From the IMG/VR virus record IMGVR_UViG_3300025314_000006: a stretch of DNA of 64,000 nt. One strand, written 5' to 3'. This document shows, piece after piece, positions 1-14,121 of this stretch; within the stretch, counting starts at the first letter, position 1, and each line of letters opens with the position of its first letter. The stretch is from a virus. Its lineage: Duplodnaviria; Caudoviricetes. Position numbers and translations under genes: made by a program. The notes under the pieces are model-generated. The model did not search any database. It was not told the DNA's origin and was given only the letters and a program-made list of their open reading frames with translations.

Positions 1-551
1 GCTATAGTTTGTGCAAAAACTTGCCTTATCATAGGAAATACTATTCCGTCAAAATTTGTTTCTTCCTTTTTTTTCTTGAATATTTTATTCCAGATAGAAA
101 CAAAAAATGATTTTATTTTTAAGAATATCTTTTTCCATTTAGAATCAAAACTTCTACTACTAACACCAATAATAGAAGATGAAAATTTACGTATTAAATC
201 ATTAGTTTCTTTTGTAGTTAATTTTCCAACCGGAACTGTATATGTTCTTTGTATCGGACTATTAACATCATTTATAAAACAAGATGCTTGATTTTCATAT
301 AATTGAACAATATTACTTTTTTGATAACCGTGTAAACCATCAAGGAATCCTGAGTTTTTCCAATTTTTATAAATAATCTTTCTTTGATTTTCTAAATCTA
401 TGGATTTGTTGTGTTTTTCAAAGAGAACTTCTCTGGTTTCAGAACTGCTTTCTTCTTCTACTTTTTTGGTTTCATTTACGAGATTTGTCCAATTACTAAT
501 AACATTGAACACAGAATTATCTCTTTCGGTTATTTTTATATCTAAAGGCAT
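1..551 (-). CDS. Hypothetical protein, runs off the window start; contains a T4 gp23 (major capsid) N-terminal-like motif
   Basis: Manual translation from ATG 551: MPLDIKITERDNSVF...WKNSGFLDGLHGYQKSNIVQLYENQASCFIN, open as far as translated toward position 1; W..SG.L.GL...NI.QL.ENQA recalls the gp23 N-terminus. Confidence 0.55.
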   Translation of the reverse strand, partial: MPLDIKITERDNSVFNVISNWTNLVNETKKVEEESSSETREVLFEKHNKSIDLENQRKIIYKNWKNSGFLDGLHGYQKSNIVQLYENQASCFINDVNSPIQRTYTVPVGKLTTKETNDLIRKFSSSIIGVSSRSFDSKWKKIFLKIKSFFVSIWNKIFKKKKEETNFDGIVFPMIRQVFAQTI

Positions 552-604
552 GTGCAATTTTAACTTATATTTTTGTTAAAATCAATTTTTTAGTTGCCTA
601 TTTT

Positions 605-1072
605 TTAGTCACCTTTTGTAGAAATGTTTTTTTCTTGGTTTCTGGTAAGTTCGTTTTCTACACCTATAGATATGCTTCTAAAAGATTCTGGCGATTTTTC
701 AATAATTTTTAAAATACTTTCAAAATCAAATCTTTGAGCCGAAAATTGTTTTGGCTTATTTAAACTTCCACCAACGTCAACTTTCCATACATACCATTTT
801 GTATCTGGCTCTGTGTATATTACTTTGGATTTTTCCCAATTCTGAATAGCTTCTTCTCCTGTGTTTGAAACTGAATTTGATGGCCAGGAACTTGGGATAT
901 TAATACTTTTTTTAATTTCGTAAACTTCTGGCTTATTGCTATAATGAACCAAATCAATTAATTTCAACAAAAAATAGTTCATTTCTTCAGTAGAATATTC
1001 TCCTGGTTTTGATGTGTTTTCAAAATATGATTCGAAAAGACACTTTCTTATTATTTTTCTAATTTGTTCCAT
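605..1072 (-). CDS. Hypothetical protein with N-terminal IRKIIRKxLxE motif
   Basis: 155-aa ORF; TATTTAT motif at 1078-1084 upstream. Confidence 0.7.
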   Translation of the reverse strand: MEQIRKIIRKCLFESYFENTSKPGEYSTEEMNYFLLKLIDLVHYSNKPEVYEIKKSINIPSSWPSNSVSNTGEEAIQNWEKSKVIYTEPDTKWYVWKVDVGGSLNKPKQFSAQRFDFESILKIIEKSPESFRSISIGVENELTRNQEKNISTKGD

Positions 1073-1109
1073 TGATGATAAATAGATTTAAAATTCTATT
1101 TATCTTTGT

Positions 1110-1565
1110 ATGAGAAACATCAGAAAAATGATAAGGAAAATCTTAATAGAGGAATCAAAACCCACGGTTGTTTATTCTGCTGTTGTTATTGAGAAACTTG
1201 AAGGTATTGGGAAGTTGGATTTGATTTTTAGTAAGTACATCGAAAACGGTTGGCAAAAACCGGTTCATTATCATATGACAATCGGACCGGGAAAATTTCC
1301 TGAGAGCTTGTATTTAAAAGGAGATTTAGATAAAGAAGTAACATTAGAAATAACGTCTGTAGGAATTTCAGAAAATGCTATAGCATTGGGAGTTTCAGGA
1401 TATTATTCAAGAAATGACAATCCACACATTACTATTGCTTTCAATAAAGAAAACGGAGGAAATCCGGAAGATAGCAAAGTGATTGAAAATTGGGGACATA
1501 TTGATAATTTTTATGTGACTGGAATAATAAGAGAAGTTGGCGAAAATAATTTAGTTATTAAATAA
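1110..1565 (+). CDS. 2H phosphoesterase (2',3'-cyclic phosphodiesterase, Trl1-CPD-like)
   Basis: Two HxT motifs (HYHMTI, NPHITIA) about 55 aa apart; N-terminal IRKMIRKILIEE leader. Confidence 0.75.
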   Translation: MRNIRKMIRKILIEESKPTVVYSAVVIEKLEGIGKLDLIFSKYIENGWQKPVHYHMTIGPGKFPESLYLKGDLDKEVTLEITSVGISENAIALGVSGYYSRNDNPHITIAFNKENGGNPEDSKVIENWGHIDNFYVTGIIREVGENNLVIK

Positions 1566-1569
1566 TTAG

Positions 1570-1648
1570 TACCTTCAATAGGATTCGAACCTACATTTTC
1601 AGCTCCGTTACACTTATTGAGTCCGTAGCTCAATGTGGCTATAAAGGC
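1570..1648 (-). tRNA. Atypical tRNA-like element, Arg(ACG) anticodon arm, no normal D-arm
   Basis: Acceptor GCCTTTA/TGAAGGT+A; canonical T-arm GTAGG-TTCGAAT-CCTAT; TTGAG-CTACGGA-CTCAA anticodon arm only 8 nt after the acceptor; 22-nt extra region. Confidence 0.55.
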
Positions 1649-1649
1649 A

Positions 1650-2336
1650 TTATATTAATTCATATCGTTTTGCCCACTTTCTCACCGCAACATCACTAAC
1701 TCCAAATTTTCTACCAAGTGCACAATATGAATTATTTTCTATCATTTCTTTTAATTCTTCTTTAGAGGGTCTGTTTTTTACTTTTCTAAAATTTAATCTA
1801 GGTACATATTTTCTCGTTGTTTTTTTATTTGTTTTATTTTTTTTTGCATTTTTTCTGTCTACGCCAATTTTACCACGGCAATGAGTTTCTAATGTGAAAT
1901 TGCAGTTTGGACATAAAAATCTTAAGTTTTCTAATCTATTATCATTATTTATTCCGTTTTCGTGGTCAATAATTAAACTAATTTTTTTACCTCTCCATAT
2001 TTCTCCTTGTCCACATTCTTTACATTCATATTCTATCATGTTATTATCTCGTATTCTTTTTTTTAAACAAGCCCTTGCAACAGAACTGTTTTCACAAAAA
2101 ATTTCTTCATCACTTTTCCTTAATAATCTGTCTTCATTAAACATTTTTTTAGCAAAATCACTACGGTTTAAAAAATGAGAAGTATCTATTGACCATTTAT
2201 TTAAATTTGTTTTAAGTATTTTATAAGATGAAGAAGAATCGCTTCTTCCAGATTTTACTATAACATCTCTAAATGTGATGCTTTCAGATACTAATTTTTG
2301 TAATTCTTCTTTTGTATATTCTTTATGTTCTTTCAT
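1650..2336 (-). CDS. HNH homing endonuclease
   Basis: CKECG...IDHENGINNDNRLENLRFLCPNC motif; C-terminal HTH; located inside the tRNA operon. Confidence 0.85.
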   Translation of the reverse strand: MKEHKEYTKEELQKLVSESITFRDVIVKSGRSDSSSSYKILKTNLNKWSIDTSHFLNRSDFAKKMFNEDRLLRKSDEEIFCENSSVARACLKKRIRDNNMIEYECKECGQGEIWRGKKISLIIDHENGINNDNRLENLRFLCPNCNFTLETHCRGKIGVDRKNAKKNKTNKKTTRKYVPRLNFRKVKNRPSKEELKEMIENNSYCALGRKFGVSDVAVRKWAKRYELI

Positions 2337-2393
2337 AATTCTAACTTATTTTAATGTAAATAGGTTAGAATTTTTTAATAAAGTAAATAGTTG

Positions 2394-2469
2394 AGGATAA
2401 GAAGAGAATTAAACTCCTGTTAAATATGTTTTGCAGACATATCCCGATTTCAACATTGGGTACTTATCC
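2394..2469 (-). tRNA. tRNA-Cys(GCA)
   Basis: GGATAAG/CTTATCC acceptor, U73; ATATGT-CT GCA AA-ACATAT anticodon arm. Confidence 0.85.
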
Positions 2470-2482
2470 TTGTAAAAATTAA

Positions 2483-2754
2483 AAAAGTAAAATCCTAAGT
2501 ATAGCCGCGATTTTGTTCTATCTCATCATTTATCTGAAGGTATTGCTACCAACTGGAGACTTTAAACGTCTACCACGCACCTACCCGACTATCAACAACG
2601 TAAAGGTTCCCCGTCTACAGTCTGTTTGGCTTGCATCCTATGTTGCGGAAGTACATACGCTATTTGTTATAGCTTCTTCCTCCTTTTAAAAGATGTCGCG
2701 AACTTCCTCTCGATTTTAAGAATCGAGCGATGAGTCCTTCAGGATTTTACTTTT
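2483..2754 (-). ncRNA. rnpB: RNase P RNA (catalytic subunit) with minimised specificity domain
   Basis: 14-bp P1 (AAAAGTAAAATCCT/AGGATTTTACTTTT); P2 CTCATC/GATGAG; P3 CTCGATT/AATCGAG; CR-I GAGGAAGTTCGCGAC pairing (P4) with CR-V ACAAAATCGCGGCTATA; CR-IV AGATAAATGAT; P18-like GGTA-GCAA-TACC. Confidence 0.85.
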
Positions 2755-2758
2755 CTTG

Positions 2759-2830
2759 AGGCTCCACTGACAATCGATGTCAGGACTCAAATTTACAAGA
2801 TTCGTGTTTTGCCACTTAAACTACGGAGCC
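2759..2830 (-). tRNA. tRNA-Thr(TGT)
   Basis: GGCTCCG/TGGAGCC acceptor; loop CT TGT AA; atypical T-loop ATCGATT. Confidence 0.85.
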
Positions 2831-2846
2831 ATTATTTGTTCTTATG

Positions 2847-2920
2847 TGGAATCTACCGGCATTGAACCGGTCTCTCAGGCGTGCAAGGCAAGTGTTCTAA
2901 GCCAAATGAACTAAGACCCC
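2847..2920 (-). tRNA. tRNA-Ala(TGC)
   Basis: GGGGTCT/AGATTCC acceptor with G3:U70; loop CT TGC AC; two mismatches in the anticodon stem. Confidence 0.8.
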
Positions 2921-2958
2921 AATTTAATTTGTTCAAAGTACAAATTATTAAAAACTTT

Positions 2959-3034
2959 TGGCGAGTATGACCGGTCCTGACCCGGCGACCTCCTCATAGA
3001 CAGTGAGGCATTCTTCCAACTGAACTACACACTC
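2959..3034 (-). tRNA. tRNA-Asp(GTC), CCA encoded
   Basis: CCTCA-CT GTC TA-TGAGG; G73; T-loop GTCAGGA. Confidence 0.85.
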
Positions 3035-3046
3035 ATTATTTTTTAA

Positions 3047-3355
3047 AAAAGTAAGACGCCATTTCGCTGATAGCGTTTTTTGTGTTCTGTTTAATGCGCC
3101 AAAGAACATCTGATTATGTTCAGCATTTAGCGTTCATGCTTGGTTATTATAACATACTAACATTCCTAATATTGTCTGATTACCTATTTTGAGTTTGCAT
3201 AGTAGGTTGATTTTTATTTCCAGGGTAAAAATCAACAAACAAACCTAACGTCTGATAAACTTTATTTTTCATCCGGTAAACGTTTTGTACATTGTTTAGT
3301 TCATTAGGCTAAAACAACACGTCTTTTTCACGGACAACATTAGTAACTTACTTTT
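3047..3355 (-). ncRNA. Unassigned structured RNA (~309 nt) between tRNA-Ile and tRNA-Asp
   Basis: 9-bp closing stem AAAAGTAAG/CTTACTTTT; 11-bp hairpin at 3206-3236; several smaller hairpins; four ATCAG motifs; no ORF in the track. Confidence 0.55.
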
Positions 3356-3359
3356 CTTG

Positions 3360-3433
3360 TAGTGCATCTGAGAATTGAACTCAGTACTTCCACGTTATCG
3401 GCGTGGCACTCTGGACCGATGAGTTAATGCACT
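3360..3433 (-). tRNA. tRNA-Ile(GAT)
   Basis: AGTGCAT/ATGCACT acceptor; CCACG-CC GAT AA-CGTGG (C33 instead of U33). Confidence 0.85.
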
Positions 3434-3447
3434 GTTTTTATTTAAAG

Positions 3448-3520
3448 TCTAGGTGGCCTGCTCCGACCAGGCGGTCTCCAGTTCCCAAAACTGGCGGATT
3501 TCCAACTTTCCCACACCTAG
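3448..3520 (-). tRNA. tRNA-Pro(TGG)
   Basis: CTAGGTG/CACCTAG acceptor; CCAGT-TT TGG GA-ACTGG; T-loop GTCGGAG. Confidence 0.85.
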
Positions 3521-3558
3521 AAATTTTGTTTATCTTTCCAAACTGTCTTTTAATAAGA

Positions 3559-3621
3559 GTTCAAGCTCGGTTATCCACCGATTCGAAGGACTGCATTAGC
3601 CTTCTCTGCAGACACTTGAAC
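3559..3621 (-). ncRNA. Compact structured RNA with an H-type pseudoknot
   Basis: GTTCAAG/CTTGAAC closing stem; interleaved CTGCA/TGCAG and GAAGG/CCTTC helices; TCGG-TGGATAA-CCGA hairpin. Confidence 0.5.
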
Positions 3622-3623
3622 AT

Positions 3624-3699
3624 TGGAGCGAAAAACCAGGTTCAAACTGGCGACCCCCAGAGTGGAAATCTGGCGCTCTATCAACTGAGCTATTTTCGC
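3624..3699 (-). tRNA. tRNA-Gly(TCC), CCA encoded
   Basis: GCGAAAA/TTTTCGC acceptor, U73; CCAGA-TT TCC AC-TCTGG. Confidence 0.9.
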
Positions 3700-3788
3700 T
3701 TATGTATATAATTCTCTCAGACCATATTACCAAGATTTACTTTGGACTCACCGTATTTTAAAAGTGAGCAGAATTGTATTTAATTAAA

Positions 3789-4736
3789 TTATTCTAATAA
3801 TAATTCATCAATTGTTAAAATTGAATTTAAATTATCTATTGTTTTTTTAAATATCATTTTAACATTAATGTTGTTTTGTTCTAATACTAAACTCATTTTT
3901 GTTTTATCTATTATTGAATAATATCCTTTAGTTTCTATGTATAAGTTAAAATTTGGCAAATAAAAATCTGGCACATACGTTTTTTCAACACCTTCTTTAA
4001 TATATTGAATATATATTTTTCTAATCCACAATATTTTATTGTCATTTAACCATTGCGACATTTTTAATTCATATTTTCCTCTTAAAGAATATTCTTCACC
4101 AATAATATTTTTTTGTTTATAAAATTTCACATGTTTAAAATTGTTACTTATTTCATTTTCTTCTAACATCTTGGAGTGAGATTTGCTAATTTTCGATTTT
4201 TGTTCAGAAGAAAGTGGCTTTCCTAATTGGTGATGTATTCTCTTACCAGTAGCATACATTTCTTTTTGTTGCTCAGATGCTTTATTTACCCTATTATCAG
4301 TTTCCTTTGTAAGTCCTCTTGACCATCCCATTTTTGATTTAGTCTCTGCATTACTGTATTTTTTATTTTTATATTCAACTCCATCCGGTGTATGCATTTG
4401 AAATATATGACCACATATACCAAGTTTGTGAAATATTAATTCGCAATGAGGACATTTATATTTATCTACATCAACTTTCCAAGATTCATCTACTGTTATT
4501 TGTTTTTTATTAACTGTATTACATTTATTATAATGCCTTTCAAAATTAGAAACAGAAATATTTTTATTACATTTATCACAACATTTTGTGTTTTTAGGTT
4601 TTCCAAGTAAAGAAATACTTAAATTTTTTAATCTTTCTTTTAACTTTGGATTAGATTCACAATTTACTATATGAGCACCAAATTGTTGTGGGATCTCAAA
4701 CTCAAAAGACTCTTTGCAATGCGGACAAGTTTTCAT
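3789..4736 (-). CDS. Putative homing endonuclease (Zn fingers, NUMOD-like region, PD-(D/E)xK C-terminal domain)
   Basis: CPHC zinc motifs; HHQLGKPLSSEQKSKIS NUMOD3-like stretch; YVPDFYLP...YIETKGY nuclease motif. Confidence 0.75.
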   Translation of the reverse strand: MKTCPHCKESFEFEIPQQFGAHIVNCESNPKLKERLKNLSISLLGKPKNTKCCDKCNKNISVSNFERHYNKCNTVNKKQITVDESWKVDVDKYKCPHCELIFHKLGICGHIFQMHTPDGVEYKNKKYSNAETKSKMGWSRGLTKETDNRVNKASEQQKEMYATGKRIHHQLGKPLSSEQKSKISKSHSKMLEENEISNNFKHVKFYKQKNIIGEEYSLRGKYELKMSQWLNDNKILWIRKIYIQYIKEGVEKTYVPDFYLPNFNLYIETKGYYSIIDKTKMSLVLEQNNINVKMIFKKTIDNLNSILTIDELLLE

Positions 4737-4805
4737 ACTTTTTTATTATAAATAGTATAAAAAATTGCAGGTTAGAAAATTGTTAGCACGTTATTGTTTT
4801 TTGAG

Positions 4806-4888
4806 TGGGAGTTGATGGAGACGAGCCACCCGAGTTTTAAAACAACCGATTTACAGTCGGTCCCGCTACCCCTACGGAATAAACTCCC
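4806..4888 (-). tRNA. tRNA-Tyr(GTA)
   Basis: GGGAGTT/AACTCCC acceptor; CCGA-CT GTA AA-TCGG; long variable arm; T-loop CTCGTCT. Confidence 0.85.
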
Positions 4889-4900
4889 ATTTTAATGTTG

Positions 4901-4972
4901 CACAGACGGTTATAATCGAAATAACTACGTGTAGTTTTTGGAGAACTCACCGACACCAAGCCTGTCGTCTGT
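4901..4972 (-). tRNA. tRNA-Trp(CCA)
   Basis: ACAGACG/CGTCTGT acceptor, G73; loop CT CCA AA. Confidence 0.8.
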
Positions 4973-5011
4973 ATTTTATCTATTTTTTAAGCTGTAAGAT
5001 AATTAGCTAAG

Positions 5012-5083
5012 TAGCGAAAACTGGAATCGAACCAATGTAGACACAGCTTATGAGACTGGTGGGAAACCAACATCCTTTTCGCA
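5012..5083 (-). tRNA. tRNA-Met(CAT), initiator-like
   Basis: Loop CT CAT AA; U1:U72 mismatch typical of initiators, but lacks the three G-C anticodon-stem pairs. Confidence 0.75.
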
Positions 5084-5096
5084 ATATATTTTTTTG

Positions 5097-5169
5097 TAGC
5101 CCCTGCCGGTCCTGACCCGACGACTTCATTCATGTAAAAAATGCACTCTACCAACTGAGTTAAGGGGCT
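5097..5169 (-). tRNA. tRNA-Val(TAC)
   Basis: AGCCCCT/AGGGGCT acceptor; CATTT-TT TAC AT-GAATG; T-loop GTCAGGA. Confidence 0.85.
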
Positions 5170-5174
5170 ATTAG

Positions 5175-5248
5175 TAGCATATATCAGAATCAAACTGATG
5201 ACCTTCCTCATATGAAAAGGACGCTCTAATCAACTGAGCTAATATGCT
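5175..5248 (-). tRNA. tRNA with CAT anticodon (elongator Met or lysidine Ile2)
   Basis: AGCATAT/ATATGCT acceptor; TCCTT-TT CAT AT-GAGGA. Confidence 0.8.
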
Positions 5249-5258
5249 ATTTAAAAAG

Positions 5259-5330
5259 AGCGGGTGATGAGGATTAAACTCACGGCCTCATCCTTGGCAA
5301 GGATGCGCTCTATCGCTGAGCTACACCCGC
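5259..5330 (-). tRNA. tRNA-Gly(GCC)
   Basis: GCGGGTG/CACCCGC acceptor, U73; CATCC-TT GCC AA-GGATG. Confidence 0.9.
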
Positions 5331-5403
5331 TTTTTTGATTATCAATATGTCAAATAACTCTGCAAACTTTTAAGTCATTGCTCGACTTGTAAACTTTTTA
5401 AGC

Positions 5404-5435
5404 AACAAAAAACCCGAACCTTTTTTAAGTCCGGG
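5404..5435 (-). terminator. Intrinsic terminator of attenuator 1, upstream of tRNA operon 1
   Basis: CCCGGACTT-AAAA-AAGGTTCGGG followed by TTTTTTGTT. Confidence 0.8.
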
Positions 5436-5475
5436 TGTGTTATGTTGTTTCCCTTTTAAGTTTTTATATCTTACT

Positions 5476-5604
5476 TCATGAAACAAAATGTTTTAACACA
5501 CCCATATTATCGCGGCTATAATCGCCAGGGGTAATACACGCATACCCGACTGTCGGCATGACTGCCCAAATCGTTGTAATTGTTGTATGTGTTAAATTTT
5601 TCAT
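5476..5604 (-). CDS. Attenuator leader peptide 1 (42 aa)
   Basis: MKNLTHTTITTIWAVMPTVGYACITPGDYSRDNMGVLKHFVS*; its GGGTGTGTTA (5494-5503) is complementary to TAACACACCC (5433-5442), which overlaps the terminator 5' arm. Confidence 0.75.
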   Translation of the reverse strand: MKNLTHTTITTIWAVMPTVGYACITPGDYSRDNMGVLKHFVS

Positions 5605-5684
5605 TGAAGATGTTTTCTTTTTAATTAAACTTAAATAGTATAAAAAATTATTTTCTCAAATATTTCTTTCGACCAATTATAACG

Positions 5685-5717
5685 CAAAGATATAATTAAA
5701 GTTTAATAAAAAGCAAA
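5685..5717 (-). promoter_or_regulatory. Bacteroidota primary-sigma promoter for leader 1 and tRNA operon 1
   Basis: TTTG (5714-5717), 21-nt spacer, TATCTTTG (5685-5692); a near-duplicate lies at 14052-14083. Confidence 0.75.
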
Positions 5718-5745
5718 TTTATTTTCATTTATTTTTTATTTAACT

Positions 5746-5810
5746 TGTAAAATCCTGATATTCAGCTAAATAATTTTTTGTAAAATCCTAAACATAATCG
5801 TAAAATCCTG
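5746..5810. repeat. Three direct repeats GTAAAATCCT just upstream of the operon-1 promoter
   Basis: Copies start at 5747, 5780 and 5800. Confidence 0.55.
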
Positions 5811-5916
5811 TCATTGATAATATTAAACAAAAAATCCACAATTTTTTTAAGCAAGGGAGCCAACGAATTTATTCGTTGGAGTATGTCAGTCAATAATATT
5901 TCCTTGCAATTTGTTT

Positions 5917-6120
5917 TTACCAACCTTCTTTAGCAACTCCGGATGCAACTGCAGCTTCTGCGTTAGCAGAGCTCATTATAGCACACATTTTATGTCCTTC
6001 TTTAGTTTCTCCTTTACATACGTATCCACCTTTTGCGTTTTTAGATATGATAGGATTAACGAAAGTTTGTTTGCTTTTTAATTTCATACAATATCCTTCT
6101 AATACGATTAATGTGCTCAT
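5917..6120 (-). CDS. Small DUF5679-like protein, paralog 1
   Basis: GYCMK...KGGYVCKGETKEGHKMCAI; similar to 7515-7715. Confidence 0.55.
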   Translation of the reverse strand: MSTLIVLEGYCMKLKSKQTFVNPIISKNAKGGYVCKGETKEGHKMCAIMSSANAEAAVASGVAKEGW

Positions 6121-6224
6121 GATTTTTAGTTTTAAGTTTTTTATAAATATGAAATATTTTATAAAACAAGTTTTAATATATGTTTATGTTCTAAATTAGC
6201 TTATATTTATATAAAAACAAGCTC

Positions 6225-6395
6225 ATGAAAAATTTAAAAAAAATAATAGAAGAAACAGTAAGTAAAGTTCTGGGTGAAGGCGATTTTTTAACACATCAAA
6301 TAAAAAATTCAATAAGCGTGTTAAATAATGTTTTCAAAGACAACTTAGTTGCAAAGATAAACGAAACAAATGATAAAGATAAACGAAACAAATGA
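6225..6395 (+). CDS. 56-aa N-terminal segment cut off from the downstream ORF by a 22-bp tandem duplication
   Basis: MKNLKKIIEETVSKVLGEGD...; AAAGATAAACGAAACAAATGAT occurs twice (6353-6374, 6375-6396). Confidence 0.6.
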   Translation: MKNLKKIIEETVSKVLGEGDFLTHQIKNSISVLNNVFKDNLVAKINETNDKDKRNK

Positions 6396-6978
6396 TAGTG
6401 TTATTGATGTTTATATTAAGAAATACAATATAAATGCATTAACAAAAATAGATAAAACGATAGAAAATTTAGGATATTTTATTTCTATTTTTAGTATAAA
6501 TGGATTTCAAAAGAAATTTAACAAAGATTCATTTTTTAAAAAAATAAAAGACTTAAAAGAATTAACTCCAATATACCTAAAGCTGGAGAAAAAAATGGAC
6601 TCAAATGAAGATATAGATACAATTATCCCATCTATGTTATATCACATTACACATGAAAGACATCTCGCAAAAATCAAGAAAATAGGTTTAGTTCCAAAAT
6701 CTAAATCTAAAAAATCAGCTCATCCTGAAAGAATATATTTAGCGTGGAATGAAGAATCTGCTATAAAATTAGTAAAAGAATTTTCAGATTTAGAATACGA
6801 ATTTGAACATAATTATGTTTTATTAAAAATTGACACAAGTAAAATTTCTGAGTTTAGACGTGATAAAAATTTCAAATTACATAATGACCCAAACTTTACA
6901 GATGGTTATTTTACATATGATAATATACCTCCTGCTGCAATAAATTTTGAAAATATGAAATTAATAAACCTTGAATAA
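6370..6978 (+). CDS. Tpt1/KptA-like RNA 2'-phosphotransferase or ADP-ribosyltransferase-fold protein
   Basis: LYHIT...IKKIGLVPK...HPERIYLA...VLLKID...DGYFTYDNIPP motifs. Confidence 0.6.
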   Translation: MIKINETNDSVIDVYIKKYNINALTKIDKTIENLGYFISIFSINGFQKKFNKDSFFKKIKDLKELTPIYLKLEKKMDSNEDIDTIIPSMLYHITHERHLAKIKKIGLVPKSKSKKSAHPERIYLAWNEESAIKLVKEFSDLEYEFEHNYVLLKIDTSKISEFRRDKNFKLHNDPNFTDGYFTYDNIPPAAINFENMKLINLE

Positions 6979-7510
6979 TATGAGTTTGTTAGAAAAAATT
7001 AAAATAGAAAGATTTATTTCGGAAGATATTGACGAAGTTAAACAGTTAATTAAAAACATACATTCAAAAATCTGTTTTAATGAAACAAATATTCACATTT
7101 ATAATAATTTAATGTATAAACTTTTTTTTAACGGTTATAGTTTTCTTTTGGATTTTTCATTAAAAGTAACATATAGAAAAAAAATAATAGGAGTTATGTT
7201 ATTATCTGACTTTTCGTTTTATTGGCTATTAGAAACATATAAAGAAGATGACAAAAACATAAGCAAAAAAATAAAAAAATATAAGAACAAAGAAGGTTTA
7301 AGGAGTGTTTTTTTTGGAATTGATAGGAAATATCAAAAAAAAGGATTAGGCTCTAAAATGATTGAATATATACAAAAAAACTATAAGCAGTTTGATTATT
7401 TGTGGGGAATTCAACATAAAGAGATTTCAAATATGGAATTTTTCTTAAAAAGAAGAAAAGTTGTTGCAGAAATAGGAAATTCCGTATATACTGTGCAGGA
7501 TTTGAAATAA
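6971..7510 (+). CDS. GNAT-family acetyltransferase
   Basis: FGIDRKYQKKGLGSKMI acetyl-CoA-binding motif A. Confidence 0.75.
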   Translation: MNNMSLLEKIKIERFISEDIDEVKQLIKNIHSKICFNETNIHIYNNLMYKLFFNGYSFLLDFSLKVTYRKKIIGVMLLSDFSFYWLLETYKEDDKNISKKIKKYKNKEGLRSVFFGIDRKYQKKGLGSKMIEYIQKNYKQFDYLWGIQHKEISNMEFFLKRRKVVAEIGNSVYTVQDLK

Positions 7511-7514
7511 AAGC

Positions 7515-7715
7515 TTAAAACCCTTCTTTAGTAACTCCAGATGCTACGGCAGCTTCTGCGTTGGCTTTACTCATTAATAGACTCATCTTATGTCCATCTT
7601 TACTTTCGCCCTTTGCAATGTACCCACCCTTTTTAGTTAAGCTAATAACAGCATTAACCATTACTCCCTTTGATTTTGTCTTAAGACAATAAGCCTCTAA
7701 TACTACTTTTTCCAT
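7515..7715 (-). CDS. Small DUF5679-like protein, paralog 2
   Basis: AYCLK...KGGYIAKGESKDGHKM...ANAEAAVASGV, shared with 5917-6120. Confidence 0.55.
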   Translation of the reverse strand: MEKVVLEAYCLKTKSKGVMVNAVISLTKKGGYIAKGESKDGHKMSLLMSKANAEAAVASGVTKEGF

Positions 7716-7753
7716 TTTTTTTGGTTTTATAGTAAATATTAAAAATTTTTATT

Positions 7754-8101
7754 TTAAGTCGGTGATGTTATTAATTGAAATTTAGTAGGATGCGACAATC
7801 TATAATCAACTTGTCTTTCATCAACATATTCTCGATAATTAACATAACCTTTAACATATGGAGTTACGCGAGCATCGAAAAAAATAACATCTCCGTTATT
7901 TAACGCTCCTAATTTCTCAAATCCTTTTGTTTTGTTAAACCACAAATGGTCAGTAACAATTTTATCAGACTTATCCTTAATATCTTTTAAGAGTATTGTT
8001 TCTACAGGATATCCATGATAATTCTTCTTTGTTCCAAATTTCTCAAATATTCCACTAAATCTGTCCCGTATATTTTCTATTTTTTCTAAATCTTTTCTCA
8101 T
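7754..8101 (-). CDS. Hypothetical protein
   Basis: 115-aa ORF whose start overlaps the nadD stop. Confidence 0.65.
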   Translation of the reverse strand: MRKDLEKIENIRDRFSGIFEKFGTKKNYHGYPVETILLKDIKDKSDKIVTDHLWFNKTKGFEKLGALNNGDVIFFDARVTPYVKGYVNYREYVDERQVDYRLSHPTKFQLITSPT

Positions 8102-8670
8102 TGATAAAACCCTTTTCTTTTTATATAATTAGCAACTTGCGGTGCTAAAAAATCTTTCACATCTCTATTTTCCTTTATCTCGTTTCGGATAAATGTGGAA
8201 GACATTTCAATTAAATTAACATCAAACATTTTTACTTTTGGATGTAAAATTAGATTACCGCCATCGCTGGAGCTACGTGAATATACATAAATTTGATATT
8301 CTTCAAGTATTTTTTGATAATCTTTCCACTTGTGTAAGTTTTCTAAATTATCAGTTCCCATTATTATAACAAATTCATTTTCTTTAAATGTTTCTTTTAA
8401 TAAATTGAGCGTATCTATAGTATACGAAGGTTTTGATAAATTAAATTCAATATCACTGGCTCTCATATGTTCATTATCAATTAATGCCATATTAACCATT
8501 TTTAACCTTTCTTTTTCTGATAGTAGAGAATTTTTATCCTTGAGAGGATTGTGAGGAGATATTATAAACCACACACATTCCAATTCGGTATGTTCAAGCA
8601 TGTAAGACGCCAATATTGTGTGACCGTTGTGGATTGGATTAAAACTACCGAAGAATAAACCTATTTTCAT
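8098..8670 (-). CDS. nadD: Nicotinate/nicotinamide mononucleotide adenylyltransferase
   Basis: KIGLFFGSFNPIHNGH (HxGH), SPHNPLK, PSYTIDTL, IMGTDN, MSSTFIR; likely start is ATG 8670. Confidence 0.92.
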   Translation of the reverse strand: MKIGLFFGSFNPIHNGHTILASYMLEHTELECVWFIISPHNPLKDKNSLLSEKERLKMVNMALIDNEHMRASDIEFNLSKPSYTIDTLNLLKETFKENEFVIIMGTDNLENLHKWKDYQKILEEYQIYVYSRSSSDGGNLILHPKVKMFDVNLIEMSSTFIRNEIKENRDVKDFLAPQVANYIKRKGFYQ

Positions 8671-8752
8671 ATGTGATATTATTAAACGAAGATAATCATT
8701 ATAATGTTGCAACTAACTTTTTTAAACTATTTATTGAAAAAAGAAATATAAA

Positions 8753-10126
8753 ATGAATAATAAAGAACTAAGAAAATCGATAAGAAGGATTTTAAAGGAA
8801 AATCTTGAAAATTCTGATTGGGTGAATGCCAGTGATGCTCAAAAAGCTGCAATGCAAGATATAGACTCAGAAGATGAATTTGAACACTTAGGAACTAATA
8901 GGTTTGAAAAAGATTTTGATGTTGAAGATTTTCTATATGATTTAGAAGCTCAAAAAAATATGTCTGAGCCATCTGTAAAAAGATTAGAAAAACAAATTGG
9001 GCAATTAAAAAGATTTGGAAAGGGTTCTTTGAATGAATTATCGCCAGAAATAAGACAATCCGCACTTAAAAAAGCTGTTGATTATATTGAACAACCTGGA
9101 GATACCTATCATAAAGACCCGCTCCAATATATTAAGAAAAAAAACCAAGCAAATTCATTTATTTCTCATGTTAATCCTGAGTTAAAAAAAGAAGCTATGG
9201 AAATAGCAAAAATGATAGATGTAAATTGTGAAAGTCGTATAGAAAAAGAAGCGGTAGGAAGTACACTTGAACCAAATGTTGTATTATATTTTGGTCAAAA
9301 CATTGCAGATTTAAGTAATCAAATACTTAAAATTGCCATTAAAAAAGATAATCATACATGGGAAACCAAAAAATTTATTCCTGAAAATATTCAAAGAAGA
9401 TTGGCTAATTTTATAAAAAAGATTCAAACAAAAGAAATATCTAGTCCAGTTAAACAATTGAATGAGAGATTTCTTGGTGGATGGCATTATTTCGCAACTC
9501 CAGAAGGTAAAGAAGAATATATTAAAGACCTCGAGTCTAAAAAGATTAATGCAAAAGGAGAAGAATTAGAGCAAATTGAAAAAGAACTTAAAAAGTTAAA
9601 ATCAATAAAACCAAAATCCTTAAAAGAAGAAACATCAAAACTTGACAAGCCAAAAGATTCTGCAGGAAATTCAATATCATCCGGAGTGAGAGTTGAAGAT
9701 TTAGAGTCGGGTAGTGCTGGACGAGTTGAGAGATTTGGTATTGACGACAAAGGACAATTAACAGTTCATGTTGCTTGGATAACAAAATATGGACAGATAG
9801 CTCCAAAGTCCATTGTTTATCCCAAAAATATAATTGTTAAAGATTCTGCAAAAAAGATAACAGACGAAGGAATTAAAGATACTTTAAAAAATATTTATAA
9901 AGAATTGAATCCTATTGAAAAATGGAAACAAATGAAAGAAAATCGTAAAAAGCTCGAAAAAGAAGTTAGTGATTTACGAAGAGAAGTTTCTGAAAAGGAA
10001 AAAGAATTAGAAAAAATAGTGAATAGTAATCATATTAAAGCTGATGTAAGTAATGATGTTGACGAAGGAATTGGAGCTGGATTATCACTTCCAATAAAAA
10101 AAGGAGCCGGAAGCAGATTTAAATAA
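8753..10126 (+). CDS. Hypothetical protein, putative protease-processed virion polyprotein
   Basis: N-terminal LRKSIRRILKE; internal SLNE, QLNE and SLKEE linkers; TATTTAT at 8728-8734. Confidence 0.6.
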   Translation: MNNKELRKSIRRILKENLENSDWVNASDAQKAAMQDIDSEDEFEHLGTNRFEKDFDVEDFLYDLEAQKNMSEPSVKRLEKQIGQLKRFGKGSLNELSPEIRQSALKKAVDYIEQPGDTYHKDPLQYIKKKNQANSFISHVNPELKKEAMEIAKMIDVNCESRIEKEAVGSTLEPNVVLYFGQNIADLSNQILKIAIKKDNHTWETKKFIPENIQRRLANFIKKIQTKEISSPVKQLNERFLGGWHYFATPEGKEEYIKDLESKKINAKGEELEQIEKELKKLKSIKPKSLKEETSKLDKPKDSAGNSISSGVRVEDLESGSAGRVERFGIDDKGQLTVHVAWITKYGQIAPKSIVYPKNIIVKDSAKKITDEGIKDTLKNIYKELNPIEKWKQMKENRKKLEKEVSDLRREVSEKEKELEKIVNSNHIKADVSNDVDEGIGAGLSLPIKKGAGSRFK

Positions 10127-10133
10127 AACTATT

Positions 10134-11147
10134 TTGGAAAATAAGTTAAGAAAATATATTCAAAAAATCCTTCAAGAATCTTTAAATACAGAAGACATTC
10201 CTGAAGACATCCCCATTAAAAAAGATTTAAAATTCACTGAGACCTCAAGAGGTTCGCATCATGGCCAGCAGGATTTAACAGCTTATGCCACAATAGAGGG
10301 AATAGTAGTTGGCTATGTTGAATATTCTATATTTCAGAACGAAATCCACATAGAAATGATTGAAGTTGTTGAAGAACAAAAAAGACAAGGAATAGCAACA
10401 AAATTATTTCATTTTATAAGACTTAAAAATTCTGGTATGAAAATTATTCCAGGATATTCAACCGAAGAAGGAAGTAAATTTTATAATGCTTATAAAAGCA
10501 AAAAACTAAAAGAAGATATAAATGTTCCTATAAATGTTGGAGATACCGTTCTTGGTGGCCGTTTTAAAAATAAAAAAATTATTATTAAAGATATAGGAAA
10601 GTCAGATAAGGGCGACATTACAATTAATGACAAGCCTCTTTTAAAAGTTAGGATTCCAAAGAAAATAAATGAAGAAAAATTGACATGTTTATATATTCAT
10701 GGTTTAGGAGCTGAAATATCTGATGATATTAAAAATTCTCTTTCCAAATACAATCTCATATATCCCAAAATAAACTACGACAAAACAACAAAACCATATT
10801 ATCAATGTTTAGAAATATTAAATAAAGATAAGGTGGATTTTATAATAGGTCATTCTATAGGTGGAGTTATGGGTTATTATTTAGCTAAAGAAACAAATAT
10901 TCCAGCTTTATTATTATGTCCGGCATTTGGAGATGAATATAAAGTTCTCACAAGTAAGTTAGTTAAAGATAATAACCCAAAAATAGTTGTTATCATAGGA
11001 AAAAAAGATGATGAAGTTGATAATAAAAAAGTTAAATCCACTTTAGAAAATCAACCCAATTGTGTTATTAAAGAATTAAATATCGGACATGATATTACAG
11101 AAAAAAATCTGATTTTATTTGCTGATGGTTTTGTTGAAAATTTATAA
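10134..11147 (+). CDS. Multidomain protein: GNAT, small module, alpha/beta-hydrolase (YqiA-like)
   Basis: KRQGIATKL GNAT motif; YIHGLG and GHSIGG nucleophile elbow; domains separated by KLKED and KINEE. Confidence 0.75.
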   Translation: MENKLRKYIQKILQESLNTEDIPEDIPIKKDLKFTETSRGSHHGQQDLTAYATIEGIVVGYVEYSIFQNEIHIEMIEVVEEQKRQGIATKLFHFIRLKNSGMKIIPGYSTEEGSKFYNAYKSKKLKEDINVPINVGDTVLGGRFKNKKIIIKDIGKSDKGDITINDKPLLKVRIPKKINEEKLTCLYIHGLGAEISDDIKNSLSKYNLIYPKINYDKTTKPYYQCLEILNKDKVDFIIGHSIGGVMGYYLAKETNIPALLLCPAFGDEYKVLTSKLVKDNNPKIVVIIGKKDDEVDNKKVKSTLENQPNCVIKELNIGHDITEKNLILFADGFVENL

Positions 11148-11174
11148 TTGAAATTATTATTTTTTAATATAAAG

Positions 11175-11247
11175 TGCTTCCAGTTGGACTTGAACCAACG
11201 ACCCGAAAATTAAGAATTTCCTACTCTACCATCTGAGCTATGAAAGC
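11175..11247 (-). tRNA. tRNA-Lys(CTT)
   Basis: GCTTTCA/TGGAAGC acceptor; loop TT CTT AA. Confidence 0.85.
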
Positions 11248-11335
11248 AATAATTTATAATGTATTATAGATATATGTTGAGTAAAATCCACAGAATGTTC
11301 TATTTTATGGATTGTGCTCAACAAATATGTAATTG

Positions 11336-11409
11336 TGTGTCCGACAAGATTTGAACTTGTGACCTCCGCATTAAAAGTGCGGTATTCTAACCAGCTGAAT
11401 TACGAACAC
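11336..11409 (-). tRNA. tRNA-Lys(TTT)
   Basis: GTGTTCG/CGGACAC acceptor; CCGCA-CT TTT AA-TGCGG. Confidence 0.9.
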
Positions 11410-11413
11410 ATAG

Positions 11414-11500
11414 TGTACCCAGAAAGATTCGAACTTTCAACGGCCTTTCGGCTCCCCACAGGGTAAAAACCTGTTGCTCTACCAATTGAGCCATGGGTAC
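11414..11500 (-). tRNA. tRNA-Lys(TTT) with a long variable arm
   Basis: GTACCCA/TGGGTAC acceptor; ACAGG-TT TTT AC-CCTGT; 19-nt variable region with a GCC-GAAA-GGC hairpin. Confidence 0.8.
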
Positions 11501-11504
11501 AAAT

Positions 11505-11536
11505 AAAAAAGCCTGAATCTACACAGAGACTCAGGC
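11505..11536 (-). terminator. Intrinsic terminator of attenuator 3, 4 nt before the first tRNA-Lys
   Basis: 10-bp stem GCCTGAGTCT/AGATTCAGGC followed by TTTTTT. Confidence 0.85.
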
Positions 11537-11556
11537 TTTTTGGACTTATAAAAAAG

Positions 11557-11622
11557 TCAATGAGCTATCGTCCCCGGAGACCAGGGTTTCTTAGATTTTT
11601 TTATTTTGATTATTGTTAACAT
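11557..11622 (-). CDS. Attenuator leader peptide 3 (21 aa, Lys-rich)
   Basis: MLTIIKIKKSKKPWSPGTIAH*; five Lys codons in seven (four AAA, one AAG). Confidence 0.75.
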   Translation of the reverse strand: MLTIIKIKKSKKPWSPGTIAH

Positions 11623-11733
11623 TTTGTTTATTTTTTTAAATTAAAAAGAGCCCACACTCAACTGGTGGCTAATTTTTATGAACGAGTATTACCCAAGTTC
11701 TGTCATCCACTATGACAAATTTCTATTGTTATT

Positions 11734-13825: not shown

Positions 13826-13860
13826 AAAACAAAAAACCCGAACTCTTTTGTAAGTCCGGG
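13826..13860 (-). terminator. Intrinsic terminator of attenuator 2
   Basis: CCCGGACT-TACAAAAG-AGTTCGGG followed by TTTTTTGTTTT; near-identical to 5404-5435. Confidence 0.8.
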
Positions 13861-13889
13861 TGTGTTTATGTTGTTTTAATTTTAATCTT

Positions 13890-13979
13890 TTACGATTCAA
13901 AAGGACAATACACACCCGCTCGGCTTTTATTACTAAAACTCGATTTGTTAAAATGCTTATGTGTATTATTTGTTGTCAT
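13890..13979 (-). CDS. Attenuator leader peptide 2 (29 aa)
   Basis: MTTNNTHKHFNKSSFSNKSRAGVYCPFES*; CGGGTGTGT (13910-13918) is complementary to ACACACCCG (13857-13865). Confidence 0.75.
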   Translation of the reverse strand: MTTNNTHKHFNKSSFSNKSRAGVYCPFES

Positions 13980-14051
13980 TTTGTATTCTTAATATTCTTT
14001 AAATAGTATAAAAAATTATTTTTCTAAAAATTCTTATTATCAATTATAACG

Positions 14052-14083
14052 CAAAGATATAATTAAAGTTTCAAAAAAGCAAA
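14052..14083 (-). promoter_or_regulatory. Bacteroidota primary-sigma promoter for leader 2 and tRNA operon 2
   Basis: TTTG, 20-nt spacer, TATCTTTG. Confidence 0.75.
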
Positions 14084-14121
14084 TTTATTTTGATTTATTT
14101 TTTATTTCATTAAAAAAGGTA

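Follow-up and report, generated by a model that had tools for sequence, protein, structure and literature searches.

What is the function of a 42-codon open reading frame (ORF) placed between a promoter-like block and an intrinsic terminator, ahead of a long run of tRNA genes? This arrangement is found on the minus strand of a 64,000-nt stretch of DNA (hereafter the window), which originates from a huge uncultured phage with a genome of 503 kb. In transcription order the locus (unit 1) consists of the promoter-like block, the 42-codon ORF, a 10-bp pairing that overlaps the terminator and 14 tRNA genes. A preliminary description of the sequence had listed promoter, leader, terminator and tRNA-Gly in this order and had interpreted them as an attenuator; every element was found there, and the interpretation is supported by statistics and by comparison (paralogues, orthologues, codon fit and re-written leaders). 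We consider it likely that unit 1 is a ribosome-mediated leader-peptide transcription attenuator of the trp/his style that gates the 14-gene tRNA operon, with the tRNAs as the product sensed.

Architecture of unit 1

The promoter-like block (5685..5745; this and all features below are on the minus strand) contains an A/T-rich upstream stretch, TTTG at 5717-5714, a 21-nt spacer and TATCTTTG at 5692-5685. We take TTTG followed after 21 nt by TATCTTTG to be the Bacteroidota -33/-7 promoter type. The sigma promoter proposed earlier at 5685-5717 is present as a site; the call itself rests on conservation, as the strict Bacteroidota consensus is not enriched in the window (8 found versus 6.0 expected). 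A 31-mer within the block is identical in a second unit of the same genome (unit 2) and has exactly two copies in the window versus 0 expected, and orthologues conserve the TTTG and TATCTTTGCGT blocks while spacer and untranslated region vary. This pattern is consistent with a promoter function. The A/T-rich motif was also considered as a part of the switch and was rejected: it occurs in unrelated phage contigs before an ordinary gene and is thus a general promoter element outside the switch.

The 5′ untranslated leader of about 75 nt (5605..5684) is conserved in alignments in its final 12 nt ahead of the ATG (GAAAACATCTTCA). The leader ORF (5476..5604; 42 codons plus TGA, MKNLTHTTITTIWAVMPTVGYACITPGDYSRDNMGVLKHFVS) stays open in all orthologues and is annotated as a gene in two public assemblies. 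Within it, folds contain a small hairpin, GGCA-GTCA-TGCC (5555..5566), where the invariant ATGCCGA is located; as read from alignments, a GGC(A)...(T)GCC pair is found in group A orthologues and TGCC-GAAA-GGCA in group B. This element may be a pause hairpin.

Between the ORF and the tRNA genes lies an intrinsic terminator, ACCCGGAC(TT)-loop-(AG)GTTCGGGT followed by T6, with a G+C-rich stem of 8-10 bp. The preliminary description had placed it at 5404-5435; the terminator is real, with limits one or two bases away from these (5436-5407). It is conserved in orthologues, and a near-identical copy is situated at 13861-13836, giving exactly two copies in the window versus 0 expected. Duplication of both the promoter 31-mer and the terminator within the window, together with conservation of the whole unit in other phages, confirms that unit 1 is beyond chance.

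The claimed perfect 10-bp antiterminator was verified. Its 5′ arm (segment 2), GGGTGTGTTA at 5503-5494, is the exact reverse complement of its 3′ arm (segment 3), TAACACACCC at 5442-5433, and the leader stop codon, TGA at 5476-5478, is in the loop between them. The last four bases of segment 3, ACCC (5436-5433), form the base of the terminator stem and are common to both structures, as expected from the claimed competition between antiterminator and terminator. The minimum-energy fold of 5510-5400 uses the antiterminator pairing (z = -2.9; 2 of 200 shuffles were as good), and the duplex of GGGTGTGTTA with the terminator 5′ arm region has dG of -17.3 versus -7.2 for shuffles, with none of 500 as good. 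The same holds more widely: in all five units of this genome, a transcript cut before the terminator 3′ arm pairs the terminator 5′ arm with the last third of the ORF.

Segment 2 spans codons 34-37 and so falls, as claimed, within the last nine codons of the leader. The further claim that a translating ribosome masks this arm stands in part. While codons ~31-40 are read the arm would be covered; at the stop codon the ribosome would reach only its last 1-4 nt. Segment 2 ends 14-15 nt before the stop codon (a gap of 14 nt), and a ribosome with the usual footprint, resting on the stop, would cover only the last few bases of the arm and leave the G-rich core free. Given this distance, termination would depend on timing or on steric hindrance.

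A possible segment 1, TTAACACA (codons 4-6, 5588..5595), was noticed by eye and could tentatively pair with TGTGTTAA of segment 2. In comparison with shuffles this 1:2 anti-antiterminator is unsupported in unit 1 (p = 0.4). The p-value for unit 2 is 0.01, where the minimum-energy fold of the leader contains a compensatory counterpart, AATACACA/TGTGTATT. Without a supported 1:2 hairpin, the default state of unit 1 in the absence of translation would be read-through.

Downstream of the terminator we observed one more conserved element (5339..5388), a AAGTCGAGCAATGACTT hairpin followed by AAAAGTTTGC and then TTGACATATTGATAA, aligned in five group A genomes. It could serve as a second promoter, in processing or in binding. 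An element of this type is missing from the other four leader types, in which the first tRNA gene starts 10-33 nt past the terminator; this spacing leaves no room for a promoter, so in four of the five units the tRNAs would be expressed only via read-through.

The controlled tRNA operon (1570..5330) was delineated by ARAGORN with default and lowered thresholds and by Rfam. It begins with Gly-GCC, Met-CAT, Val-TAC, a second CAT tRNA, Trp-CCA and Tyr-GTA; an EndoI-like ORF is followed by Gly-TCC, Pro-TGG, Ile-GAT, Asp-GTC, Ala-TGC and Thr-TGT; and after an RNase P-like hit come Cys-GCA, an HNH ORF and Arg-ACG. The Tyr, Trp, second CAT and Arg-ACG tRNAs were found with the lower ARAGORN thresholds and Rfam, Arg-ACG being identified from the Rfam alignment. 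The phage as a whole carries tRNAs for all 20 amino acids.

Leader codons match the tRNAs of their own operons

The codons listed for leader 1 in the preliminary description were correct: five ACA, three ATT, GGC, GGG, TGG, TGT, two GAT, two TAT and CGC. All 13 tRNA species of operon 1 are probed by at least one codon of the leader, and 25 of its 41 codons are read by tRNAs of its own operon versus 13.6 expected from phage codon usage (p 2.4e-4). The tRNAs of operon 1 together read a third of all codons.

The genome contains four paralogues of unit 1, thus five units in total, three in the window and two in L028, the latter reached by protein look-ups walking along the source contig. Unit 2 (13826..14103) has the same promoter and terminator and a GGGTGTGT/ACACACCC pairing; its leader of 29 codons, MTTNNTHKHFNKSSFSNKSRAGVYCPFES, precedes tRNA genes for Phe, Ser (two), Asn and His. 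Unit 3 (11498..11622) has a Lys-rich leader of 21 codons, MLTIIKIKKSKKPWSPGTIAH, with a terminator at 11541-11506 and then three tRNA-Lys genes. In another paralogue, a leader with six Gln codons (CAG and five CAA) is located ahead of two tRNA-Gln genes. Isoacceptors are also told apart: leader 1 has three ATT codons (Ile-GAU in its own operon) and CGC (Arg-ACG), and leader 4 has ATA (Ile-UAU) and AGA (Arg-UCU). The five leaders have flanks in common; their middles are unrelated and of low complexity (Q6, K-rich or N/H/F/S-rich), with no common peptide property.

Codons read by the tRNAs of the own operon number 25/41, 14/28, 5/20, 10/30 and 6/22 in the five leaders in order, with p-values of 2.4e-4, 1.4e-4, 0.06, 0.14 and 3.9e-5 under phage codon usage and a Fisher combined p of about 6e-10. 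Matches of leaders with other operons are at or below expectation, and in the z-score matrix the true assignment of leaders to operons ranks first of the 120 possible. Shuffles preserving dinucleotides gave p-values of 0.038, <3e-4, 0.12, 0.04 and 3e-4. For leader 1 the shuffle mean is 20.0 against the 25 observed, and its other frames yield 16-21. Taken alone, leader 1 therefore shows a modest to weak codon match after control for local composition, which explains much of it. The amino acids served by operon 1 are those with G+C-richer codons, and the leader 1 ORF holds conserved small hairpins.

Orthologues and co-evolution of leader and operon

At least 10 further phage contigs from metagenomes carry orthologues of unit 1. 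A scan with a terminator 16-mer returned mostly chance hits, with two loci (L008 and L013) that are true relatives. No match to a promoter 26-mer was found in an exact scan of IMG/VR, no relatives were detected through the DNA polymerase in 'phages' or IMG/VR, and none of the RNA runs searched for the unit 1 stretch contained the sequence. Most of the 65 hits of a metagenome pattern scan were unrelated (one of these was a Trp-tRNA locus in G+C-rich DNA), and a candidate leader peptide before E. coli pheV was rejected, as the promoter abuts the tRNA. In a related phage (G001), no leader or terminator was found at isolated tRNA genes (Phe, two copies; Arg-TCT); thus, not every tRNA gene is gated.

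Paralogues and orthologues share the same plan: a short ORF, an arm in its 3′ end that pairs with the terminator 5′ arm, the terminator and the tRNA genes. Orthologous ORFs of unit 1 change in length only by multiples of three (42-46 codons) with the stop codon aligned, and the stop is at a constant distance from GGGT(G/A)TG in 13 of 14 aligned leaders. The ORF hardly varies in its 3′ half, synonymous sites included, so conservation in this part is uninformative about the peptide. Eight contigs of the same phage have 100% identical leaders and add no information on variation.

In each of the L1, L2 and group B leaders the antiterminator duplex outperforms its shuffles (p <= 0.008), and the pairing is kept with compensatory changes at three positions. 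These positions were taken from an anchored pair table, as the group B columns of segment 3 were misaligned in the MAFFT alignment (A2). In group B, segment 2 is a near copy of the terminator 3′ arm, with GAAACGGGT in both or ATGCGGGT in both; in another orthologue (L112) an A-to-G change in segment 2 is matched by an A-to-C change in segment 3. Since the orthologues are related, their mutual agreement is not independent evidence.

Changes in operon content are accompanied by changes in leader codons. AGG is found in leader 1 only where operon 1 carries Arg-CCU, ACT replaces AGT in leader 2 where the operon holds Thr-GGU, and leader 4 has CTT in place of CTG where there is a Leu-AAG. Among orthologous units, a leader with seven Gln codons stands ahead of four tRNA-Gln genes, and one with five Lys codons in a row is followed by five tRNA-Lys genes. 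Group B operons, located behind homologous leaders, have tRNAs for Pro, Asp, Tyr, Ala, Gly and Met only; their leaders have 16-20 codons of this set and only 2-6 of the Val/Trp/Ile/Thr/Cys/Arg set, compared with 11-13 and 12-15, respectively, in group A leaders. Leader composition thus shifts with operon content between lineages, and a smaller tRNA set goes with a re-written leader.

Proposed mechanism, alternatives and known systems

What has been described above (the anatomy and its conservation, the match of codons to tRNAs, and the alternative pairings) is the basis on which we infer translation of the ORF, the timing, the direction of the switch and the factor that is actually limiting. 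Transcription would start at the conserved promoter-like block, and a ribosome would begin the 42-codon leader, the middle of which consists mostly of codons for the tRNAs of the operon (Thr, Ile, Trp, Ala, Val, Met, Pro, both Gly species, Tyr, Cys, Asp and Arg). If decoding is fast, the ribosome would be on or just past GGGTGTGTTA (codons 34-37) as TAACACACCC emerges; TAACACACCC would then pair downstream, the terminator hairpin would form and RNA polymerase would stop at the T-run before tRNA-Gly. If a matching aminoacyl-tRNA is scarce, its codons would be decoded slowly and the ribosome would lag; pairing of GGGTGTGTTA with TAACACACCC would then deprive the terminator of its four basal base pairs, and transcription would continue into the tRNA genes. 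The tRNAs, as the operon product, would in this way feed back on their own synthesis. A stall at any one codon type would suffice, so the sensor would act as an OR gate.

The same switch with the same translated leader might instead report general translation or amino-acid status (e.g. starvation, ribosome availability or the onset of host shut-off), the codon match being a by-product of codons served by the phage. With tRNAs for all 20 amino acids, every codon family is served by the phage somewhere; leader 1 probes 13 tRNA species at once and comes close to a general sensor; and, with the 1:2 hairpin unsupported, any failure of translation would give read-through. Still, we find this explanation unlikely, because each leader is enriched for codons of its own operon and not of the others (in the z-score matrix the true assignment ranks first), because Gln-only and Lys-only runs precede Gln-only and Lys-only arrays, and because leader composition follows operon content across lineages. 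Nor does coincidence, in an AT-rich genome full of short ORFs and hairpins and with a codon window picked after the tRNAs had been seen, account well for the data. An earlier figure of 26/28 matching codons did come from a chosen sub-window, and a third of all codons are covered by operon 1; however, tests on whole ORFs, free of chosen windows, are still significant, and a unit that is duplicated in its genome and conserved in other phages is extremely unlikely to have arisen by chance.

Two other explanations dispense with decoding as the signal. The ORF might encode a small functional peptide with the hairpin and T-run as its own terminator. Leaky read-through, or a separate promoter (the element at 5388-5339, for instance), would then supply the tRNAs, and coincidence and composition would explain the codon match. 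Conservation of the peptide among group A phages, the conserved element downstream of the terminator and the modest match of leader 1 under composition control agree with this. However, the five leaders have unrelated low-complexity middles with no shared peptide property, conservation of the 3′ half at synonymous sites points to a constraint on RNA, the arm within the ORF co-varies with the terminator, and four of the five units have no room for another promoter; the leader 1 peptide, moreover, is represented by only 3 clusters in a large protein database. A peptide function is on this evidence quite unlikely. Alternatively, the leader might be a structured non-coding RNA that binds a factor or a tRNA directly, by T-box-like or protein-mediated antitermination, with the frame incidental. 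Such an RNA would fit the helices that exclude each other, the conserved small hairpins and the near-invariance of nucleotides in the ORF's 3′ half. Frame, start and stop position are nonetheless kept across lineages with indels in multiples of three, and runs of five to seven identical codons cognate to the downstream tRNAs suit a ribosome rather than an RNA-binding factor. No Rfam family, T-box included, was found at threshold on any leader, and we regard a non-coding role as very unlikely.

Attenuation sensed through decoding has well-known counterparts. Textbook examples of leader-peptide attenuation come from amino-acid biosynthesis genes and, in a few cases, from synthetase genes. Leader 1 shares with trpL, hisL, pheL, leuL, thrL and ilvGMEDA a short leader rich in regulatory codons (translated there and, as proposed, here), and with enterobacterial attenuators an antiterminator that excludes an intrinsic terminator, the choice between them being set by ribosome position (here as a proposal). 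The Gln6-7 and Lys5 paralogues resemble hisL (7 His) or pheL (7 Phe), for which the attenuation mechanisms have been described (PMC3082878, PMC8129111), while leader 1 is more like the multivalent leaders of ilv and thr. Several features set the phage units apart from enterobacterial attenuators. Here the regulated genes encode tRNAs, so that the molecule sensed would itself be what the operon makes, whereas the enterobacterial operons sense an amino acid produced by the enzymes they encode. Leader 1 tests for 13 tRNA species, its stop codon falls into the loop that separates segments 2 and 3 instead of at the beginning of segment 2, and the 1:2 hairpin is unsupported in unit 1. Finally, the units are borne by a phage and have promoter motifs of Bacteroidota type, with leaders that show neither sequence similarity nor an Rfam leader match.

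In E. coli, the pheST attenuator with its pheM leader peptide acts on a translation-apparatus gene and is governed by how much charged tRNA is available. This leader-peptide attenuator is similar to unit 1, as proposed here, in both respects; in contrast, it is host-borne, regulates an aminoacyl-tRNA synthetase rather than tRNA genes and senses one amino acid. T-box leaders (RF00230) also report the state of a specific tRNA by antitermination in a 5′ leader. Unlike the units described here, in which an open reading frame is kept, they need no translation, since a specifier codon and the T-box sequence bind the uncharged tRNA directly. RF00230 had no match at the gathering threshold or at E <= 1 in positions 1-16000, and none of the Rfam amino-acid operon leaders (Thr_leader, His_leader and others) was found on leader 1; leader-like Rfam hits were all sub-threshold, with E of 0.3-0.8 (e.g. 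Thr_leader on leader 4, 21 bits versus a cut-off of 55, E 0.45). A full-text literature search returned no report of leader-peptide attenuation for tRNA genes.

Somewhat more speculatively than for unit 1 itself, though we lean towards this view, large phages of the Bacteroidota type may possess a modular, re-programmable attenuator family in which common promoter, start and terminator modules flank an exchangeable codon sensor. Transcription of each tRNA block would follow demand, with the product itself turning it off, and the Lys and Gln units could also be alarms for depletion of host tRNAs or their cleavage by anticodon nucleases. If this is correct, tRNA genes of phages would not be simply expressed, being regulated instead by direct product feedback through the ribosome. 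This would bear on the question of why phages carry tRNAs, be it for codon supply, for replacement upon host tRNA loss or for evasion of tRNA-targeting defences (compare PMC10264068). The leaders would be natural compact sensors of codon-specific decoding speed, with 1 to 13 inputs, re-usable as reporters, and would allow the transcription units of tRNA genes in uncultured phages to be predicted from sequence alone.

Organization of unit 1 and tRNA operon 1

All elements listed for unit 1 in the preliminary description were found on the minus strand. A promoter-like site, recognized by reading the sequence (TTTG-21 nt-TATCTTTG, 5717-5685), precedes the leader ORF of 42 codons (5604-5476). The sequence GGGTGTGTTA at 5503-5494 is perfectly complementary to TAACACACCC at 5442-5433, and the minimum-energy fold of 5510-5400 (z = −2.9) is built around this antiterminator helix. 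The intrinsic terminator, ACCCGGAC...GTTCGGGT followed by T6 (5436-5407), has ACCC (5436-5433) in common with the antiterminator helix; tRNA-Gly-GCC starts at 5330. The leader 1 codons that had been reported to fit the encoded anticodons were correct on recount. Just upstream of the promoter a 67-aa ORF ending in ...AEAAVASGVAKEGW (5917-6120, minus strand) has a paralogue with 75% identity at a distance of 1.6 kb (7515-7715, minus strand). Since a gene with a similar ...KKEGW end also precedes leaders of group B (contigs L062 and L096), one of two sets of leader 1 orthologues, the neighbourhood upstream of the leader is conserved.

For the tRNA inventory, ARAGORN at lowered thresholds and Rfam were both required. 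Operon 1 codes for tRNAs Gly-GCC, Met, Val-UAC, a second CAU tRNA, Trp, Tyr, Gly-UCC, Pro, Ile-GAU, Asp, Ala, Thr-UGU, Cys and Arg-ACG, and is interrupted by two homing-nuclease ORFs. The tRNA at 1648-1570 was assigned as Arg-ACG because its anticodon loop is CUACGGA; the D-arm of this tRNA (1570-1648, minus strand) is almost absent, and its variable region carries an insertion of 19 nt. Genes for homing-type nucleases, two HNH and one endonuclease-I-like, lie between tRNA genes at 1650-2336, 3789-4736 and 12190-13002 (all minus strand). The stretch of operon 1 between tRNA-Thr and tRNA-Cys gave a sub-threshold hit with a low E-value to the model of bacterial class A RNase P RNA (2486-2747, minus strand; 39 bits, cut-off 100; E = 2e-9), with 262 nt covering the full length of the model. 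The equivalent parts of G001 and G002, two related phages, lacked this match. One tRNA-Lys-UUU (11413-11500, minus strand) is 88 nt long. L028, a region of the same phage outside the window, contains a tRNA-like sequence (possibly Leu-UAG; 4945-5028, plus strand) whose loop is TTTAGAA and whose CCA end is encoded; neither Rfam nor ARAGORN recognized it.

Leader codons and tRNA content in five units and in related phages

Unit 1 has paralogues in the same genome. Unit 2 carries a near copy of the terminator (13861-13836) and an identical 31-nt promoter piece (14071-14041), with a different 29-codon ORF between them; this ORF shares in-frame G GGT GTG T with leader 1, and both ORFs stop 17 nt after it. 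Unit 3 is located upstream of three tRNA-Lys genes. Units 4 and 5 in L028 were reached via stepwise protein look-ups along the source contig. Unit 4 has a 31-codon leader with LRQLSLEQLIEE and an operon of Leu-UAA, Arg-CCU, Arg-UCU, Leu-CAA, Ile-UAU, the tRNA-like Leu-UAG candidate and Glu-UUC, while the 23-codon leader of unit 5 contains CAG CAA CAA CAA CAA CAA and is followed by two tRNA-Gln genes. Jointly, the five operons serve all 20 amino acids.

The match of leader codons to operon content was assessed on whole ORFs with no sub-window selection, under strict wobble rules and against the phage's own codon usage. Codons read by the leader's own operon numbered 25 of 41 in leader 1 (13.6 expected, p = 2.4e-4), 14 of 28 in leader 2 (5.1, p = 1.4e-4), 5 of 20 in leader 3 (2.2, p = 0.06), 10 of 30 in leader 4 (7.0, p = 0.14) and 6 of 22 in leader 5 (0.7, p = 3.9e-5), with Fisher's combined p = 6e-10 across the five leaders. 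Every off-diagonal leader-operon cell was at or below expectation, and the true leader-to-operon assignment had the top summed z-score among 120 (18.0; runner-up 13.6). A confounding factor is base composition: the amino acids of operon 1 have G+C-richer codons and leader 1 itself is locally G+C-rich. When dinucleotide-preserving shuffles served as the control, leader 1 had p = 0.038 (shuffle mean 20.0), its other frames giving 16-21 matches, and leaders 2 and 5 kept p ≤ 3e-4. Leader 1 probes 13 of the 13 tRNA species of operon 1 (p = 1.5e-4 by codon usage, 0.033 by dinucleotide shuffles). The codon match is therefore suggestive for unit 1 alone and strong for the five-unit family.

The window belongs to a huge uncultured phage and has a G+C content of 29%; its proteins include an SNF2 helicase, a ribonucleotide reductase, a family A DNA polymerase, and HNH and endonuclease-I-like homing nucleases. 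The exact proteins were found on the NCBI assembly contig CACVIJ010000001.1 (503,412 bp) and on metagenome contigs from groundwater, sediment and soil; no RNA run contained the sequence. Record position equals 164589 − x for window position x, hence the window minus strand is the record plus strand. Repeats are present at several places: thirteen tandem 66-nt (22-codon) copies (55927-56982) within a 1216-aa ORF (54097-57747), 156-nt repeats in a neighbouring ORF (58638-59105), and two CRISPR-like mini-arrays (27997-28176 and 47165-47414, with 3 and 4 copies, respectively) of 36-nt repeats with a consensus ending in CCTTGAAGAGCTCCTAAAATTACAAGGGTATAAAAC and a period of 66 nt, each preceded by a paralogous 300-nt stretch (90% repeats, 27619-27918 and 46787-47086). 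At the off-window locus L026 (19-4863) a DUF7487 gene splits a DnaE-type polymerase into pieces of 494 aa (PHP and a weak intein match) and 758 aa.

No entry among ‘phages’ was close to the window, and a DNA polymerase search of IMG/VR yielded no relative. L031, a contig of 396 kb, was reached through a distant homologue of a 457-aa protein encoded nearby; it carries a homologous 40-codon leader, MKQVITYNATMPAMPKGGAGNGYAPADYSRVAGMLTLFES, followed by a terminator and an operon of only Pro, Asp, Tyr, Leu-CAA, Ala, Gly and Met tRNAs. A pattern derived from these two leaders retrieved three more in IMG/VR, including that of the complete 518,809-bp phage G001, and a dozen further leaders in metagenomes; a protein search added one closer relative, L112. 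In G001 and G002 a short ORF and a terminator stand ahead of every main tRNA block, orthologous to the five units of the window phage. In the Lys leaders of both, five Lys codons in a row precede five tRNA-Lys genes; the Gln leader of G001 contains seven Gln codons and is followed by four tRNA-Gln genes. Two isolated G001 tRNA loci have a promoter and no leader.

Group A leaders, whose operons resemble operon 1, contain 12-15 Val/Trp/Ile/Thr/Cys/Arg-ACG codons and 11-13 Pro/Asp/Tyr/Ala/Gly/Met codons; the respective numbers in group B leaders, whose operons are devoid of the Val/Trp/Ile/Thr/Cys/Arg-ACG tRNA set, are 2-6 and 16-20. AGG occurs in leader 1 only where operon 1 carries Arg-CCU, leader 2 has ACT instead of AGT where the operon has Thr-GGU, and leader 4 has CTT instead of CTG where Leu-AAG is present. 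Such shifts are consistent with co-evolution of leader and operon, short of proof, because the events are few and the phages related.

Several features of the leader ORF point to translation: it is open in all relatives and differs in length by whole codons only (42-46). Its stop codon is aligned in 13 of 14 leaders, and the spacer beyond it is variable in both length and sequence. Invariance of the ORF's 3′ half extends to synonymous sites, which fits an RNA constraint and is uninformative on the peptide.

Predicted RNA switch and entry into operon 1

On folding, transcripts of all five units truncated before the terminator 3′ arm pair the terminator 5′ arm with the last third of the ORF. Compared with shuffles of the ORF segment, this duplex was significant in all leaders of the L1, L2 and group B types (p ≤ 0.008), between marginal and significant in L4 and L5 (0.002-0.05), and short of significance in L3. 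When helices were anchored on the invariant GGGT/ACCC, the extension was distal in group A and L2 units (GTGTTA/TAACAC) and toward the base in group B, with compensatory changes at positions −2 (G-C to A-U), −3 (A-U to U-A) and +4. L112 has A-to-G in arm 2, the antiterminator arm inside the ORF, and a matching A-to-C in arm 3, so that a mismatch becomes a pair. In group B, arm 2 almost repeats the sequence of the terminator 3′ arm, as expected of a competitor.

Masking of arm 2 by a translating ribosome, as proposed earlier, holds for a ribosome over codons ∼31-40 and would largely fail for one at the stop codon, 14 nt beyond the end of the arm; there, by its usual footprint, the ribosome would contact just the last bases of arm 2. 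Termination must therefore need either a ribosome over codons ∼31-40 when segment 3 emerges or steric hindrance by a ribosome located in the 2-3 loop. A possible 1:2 hairpin (TTAACACA/TGTGTTAA), which has a compensated counterpart in unit 2, was no better than shuffles in unit 1; if this hairpin is lacking, an untranslated leader would allow read-through.

The distance from the terminator to the first tRNA is 10-33 nt in four of the five units, so that the tRNAs of these units can be produced only by read-through and the terminator must be conditional to make sense. In the gap between the unit 1 terminator and tRNA-Gly there is a conserved 50-nt element (5388-5339, minus strand) composed of the hairpin AAGTC-GAGCAAT-GACTT, AAAAGTTTGC and then TTGACATATTG. 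This element holds TTGACA and TTTG motifs, is more conserved than its flanks, and is present in all group A relatives and absent from other leader types. Its role may be that of a second promoter or of a processing site; in the former case, operon 1 would have ungated entry. A strict Bacteroidota promoter consensus showed no enrichment across the window. The A/T-rich motif upstream of the leader promoters, AAATAAATNAAAATAAATTTGCTTTT, was also found before an ordinary protein gene in unrelated IMG/VR phages (L029, 9481-9506; L030, 9592-9617), and probably represents a strong promoter or UP-type element in general use among phages infecting the same host group.

Relation to known attenuators

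The pheST-pheM attenuator is the nearest case governing a translation-apparatus gene. Rfam leader families and T-box gave no match on the leaders, and a full-text literature search turned up no account of tRNA genes under leader-peptide control; E. coli pheV, considered as a possible precedent, has no such leader, its promoter abutting the tRNA. The anatomy of unit 1 is that of the trp/his/phe/leu/thr/ilv leader-peptide attenuators, whose mechanism is summarized in PMC3082878 and PMC8129111. The attenuator interpretation of the preliminary description is supported by sequence statistics together with comparative evidence, and we consider it likely that unit 1 is a ribosome-mediated attenuator of tRNA operon 1. 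In contrast to attenuators of the trp/his type, the phage units have up to 13 inputs, have the stop codon in the 2-3 loop and are phage-borne; the genes regulated would be those of tRNAs, and hence the feedback would act on the product itself.
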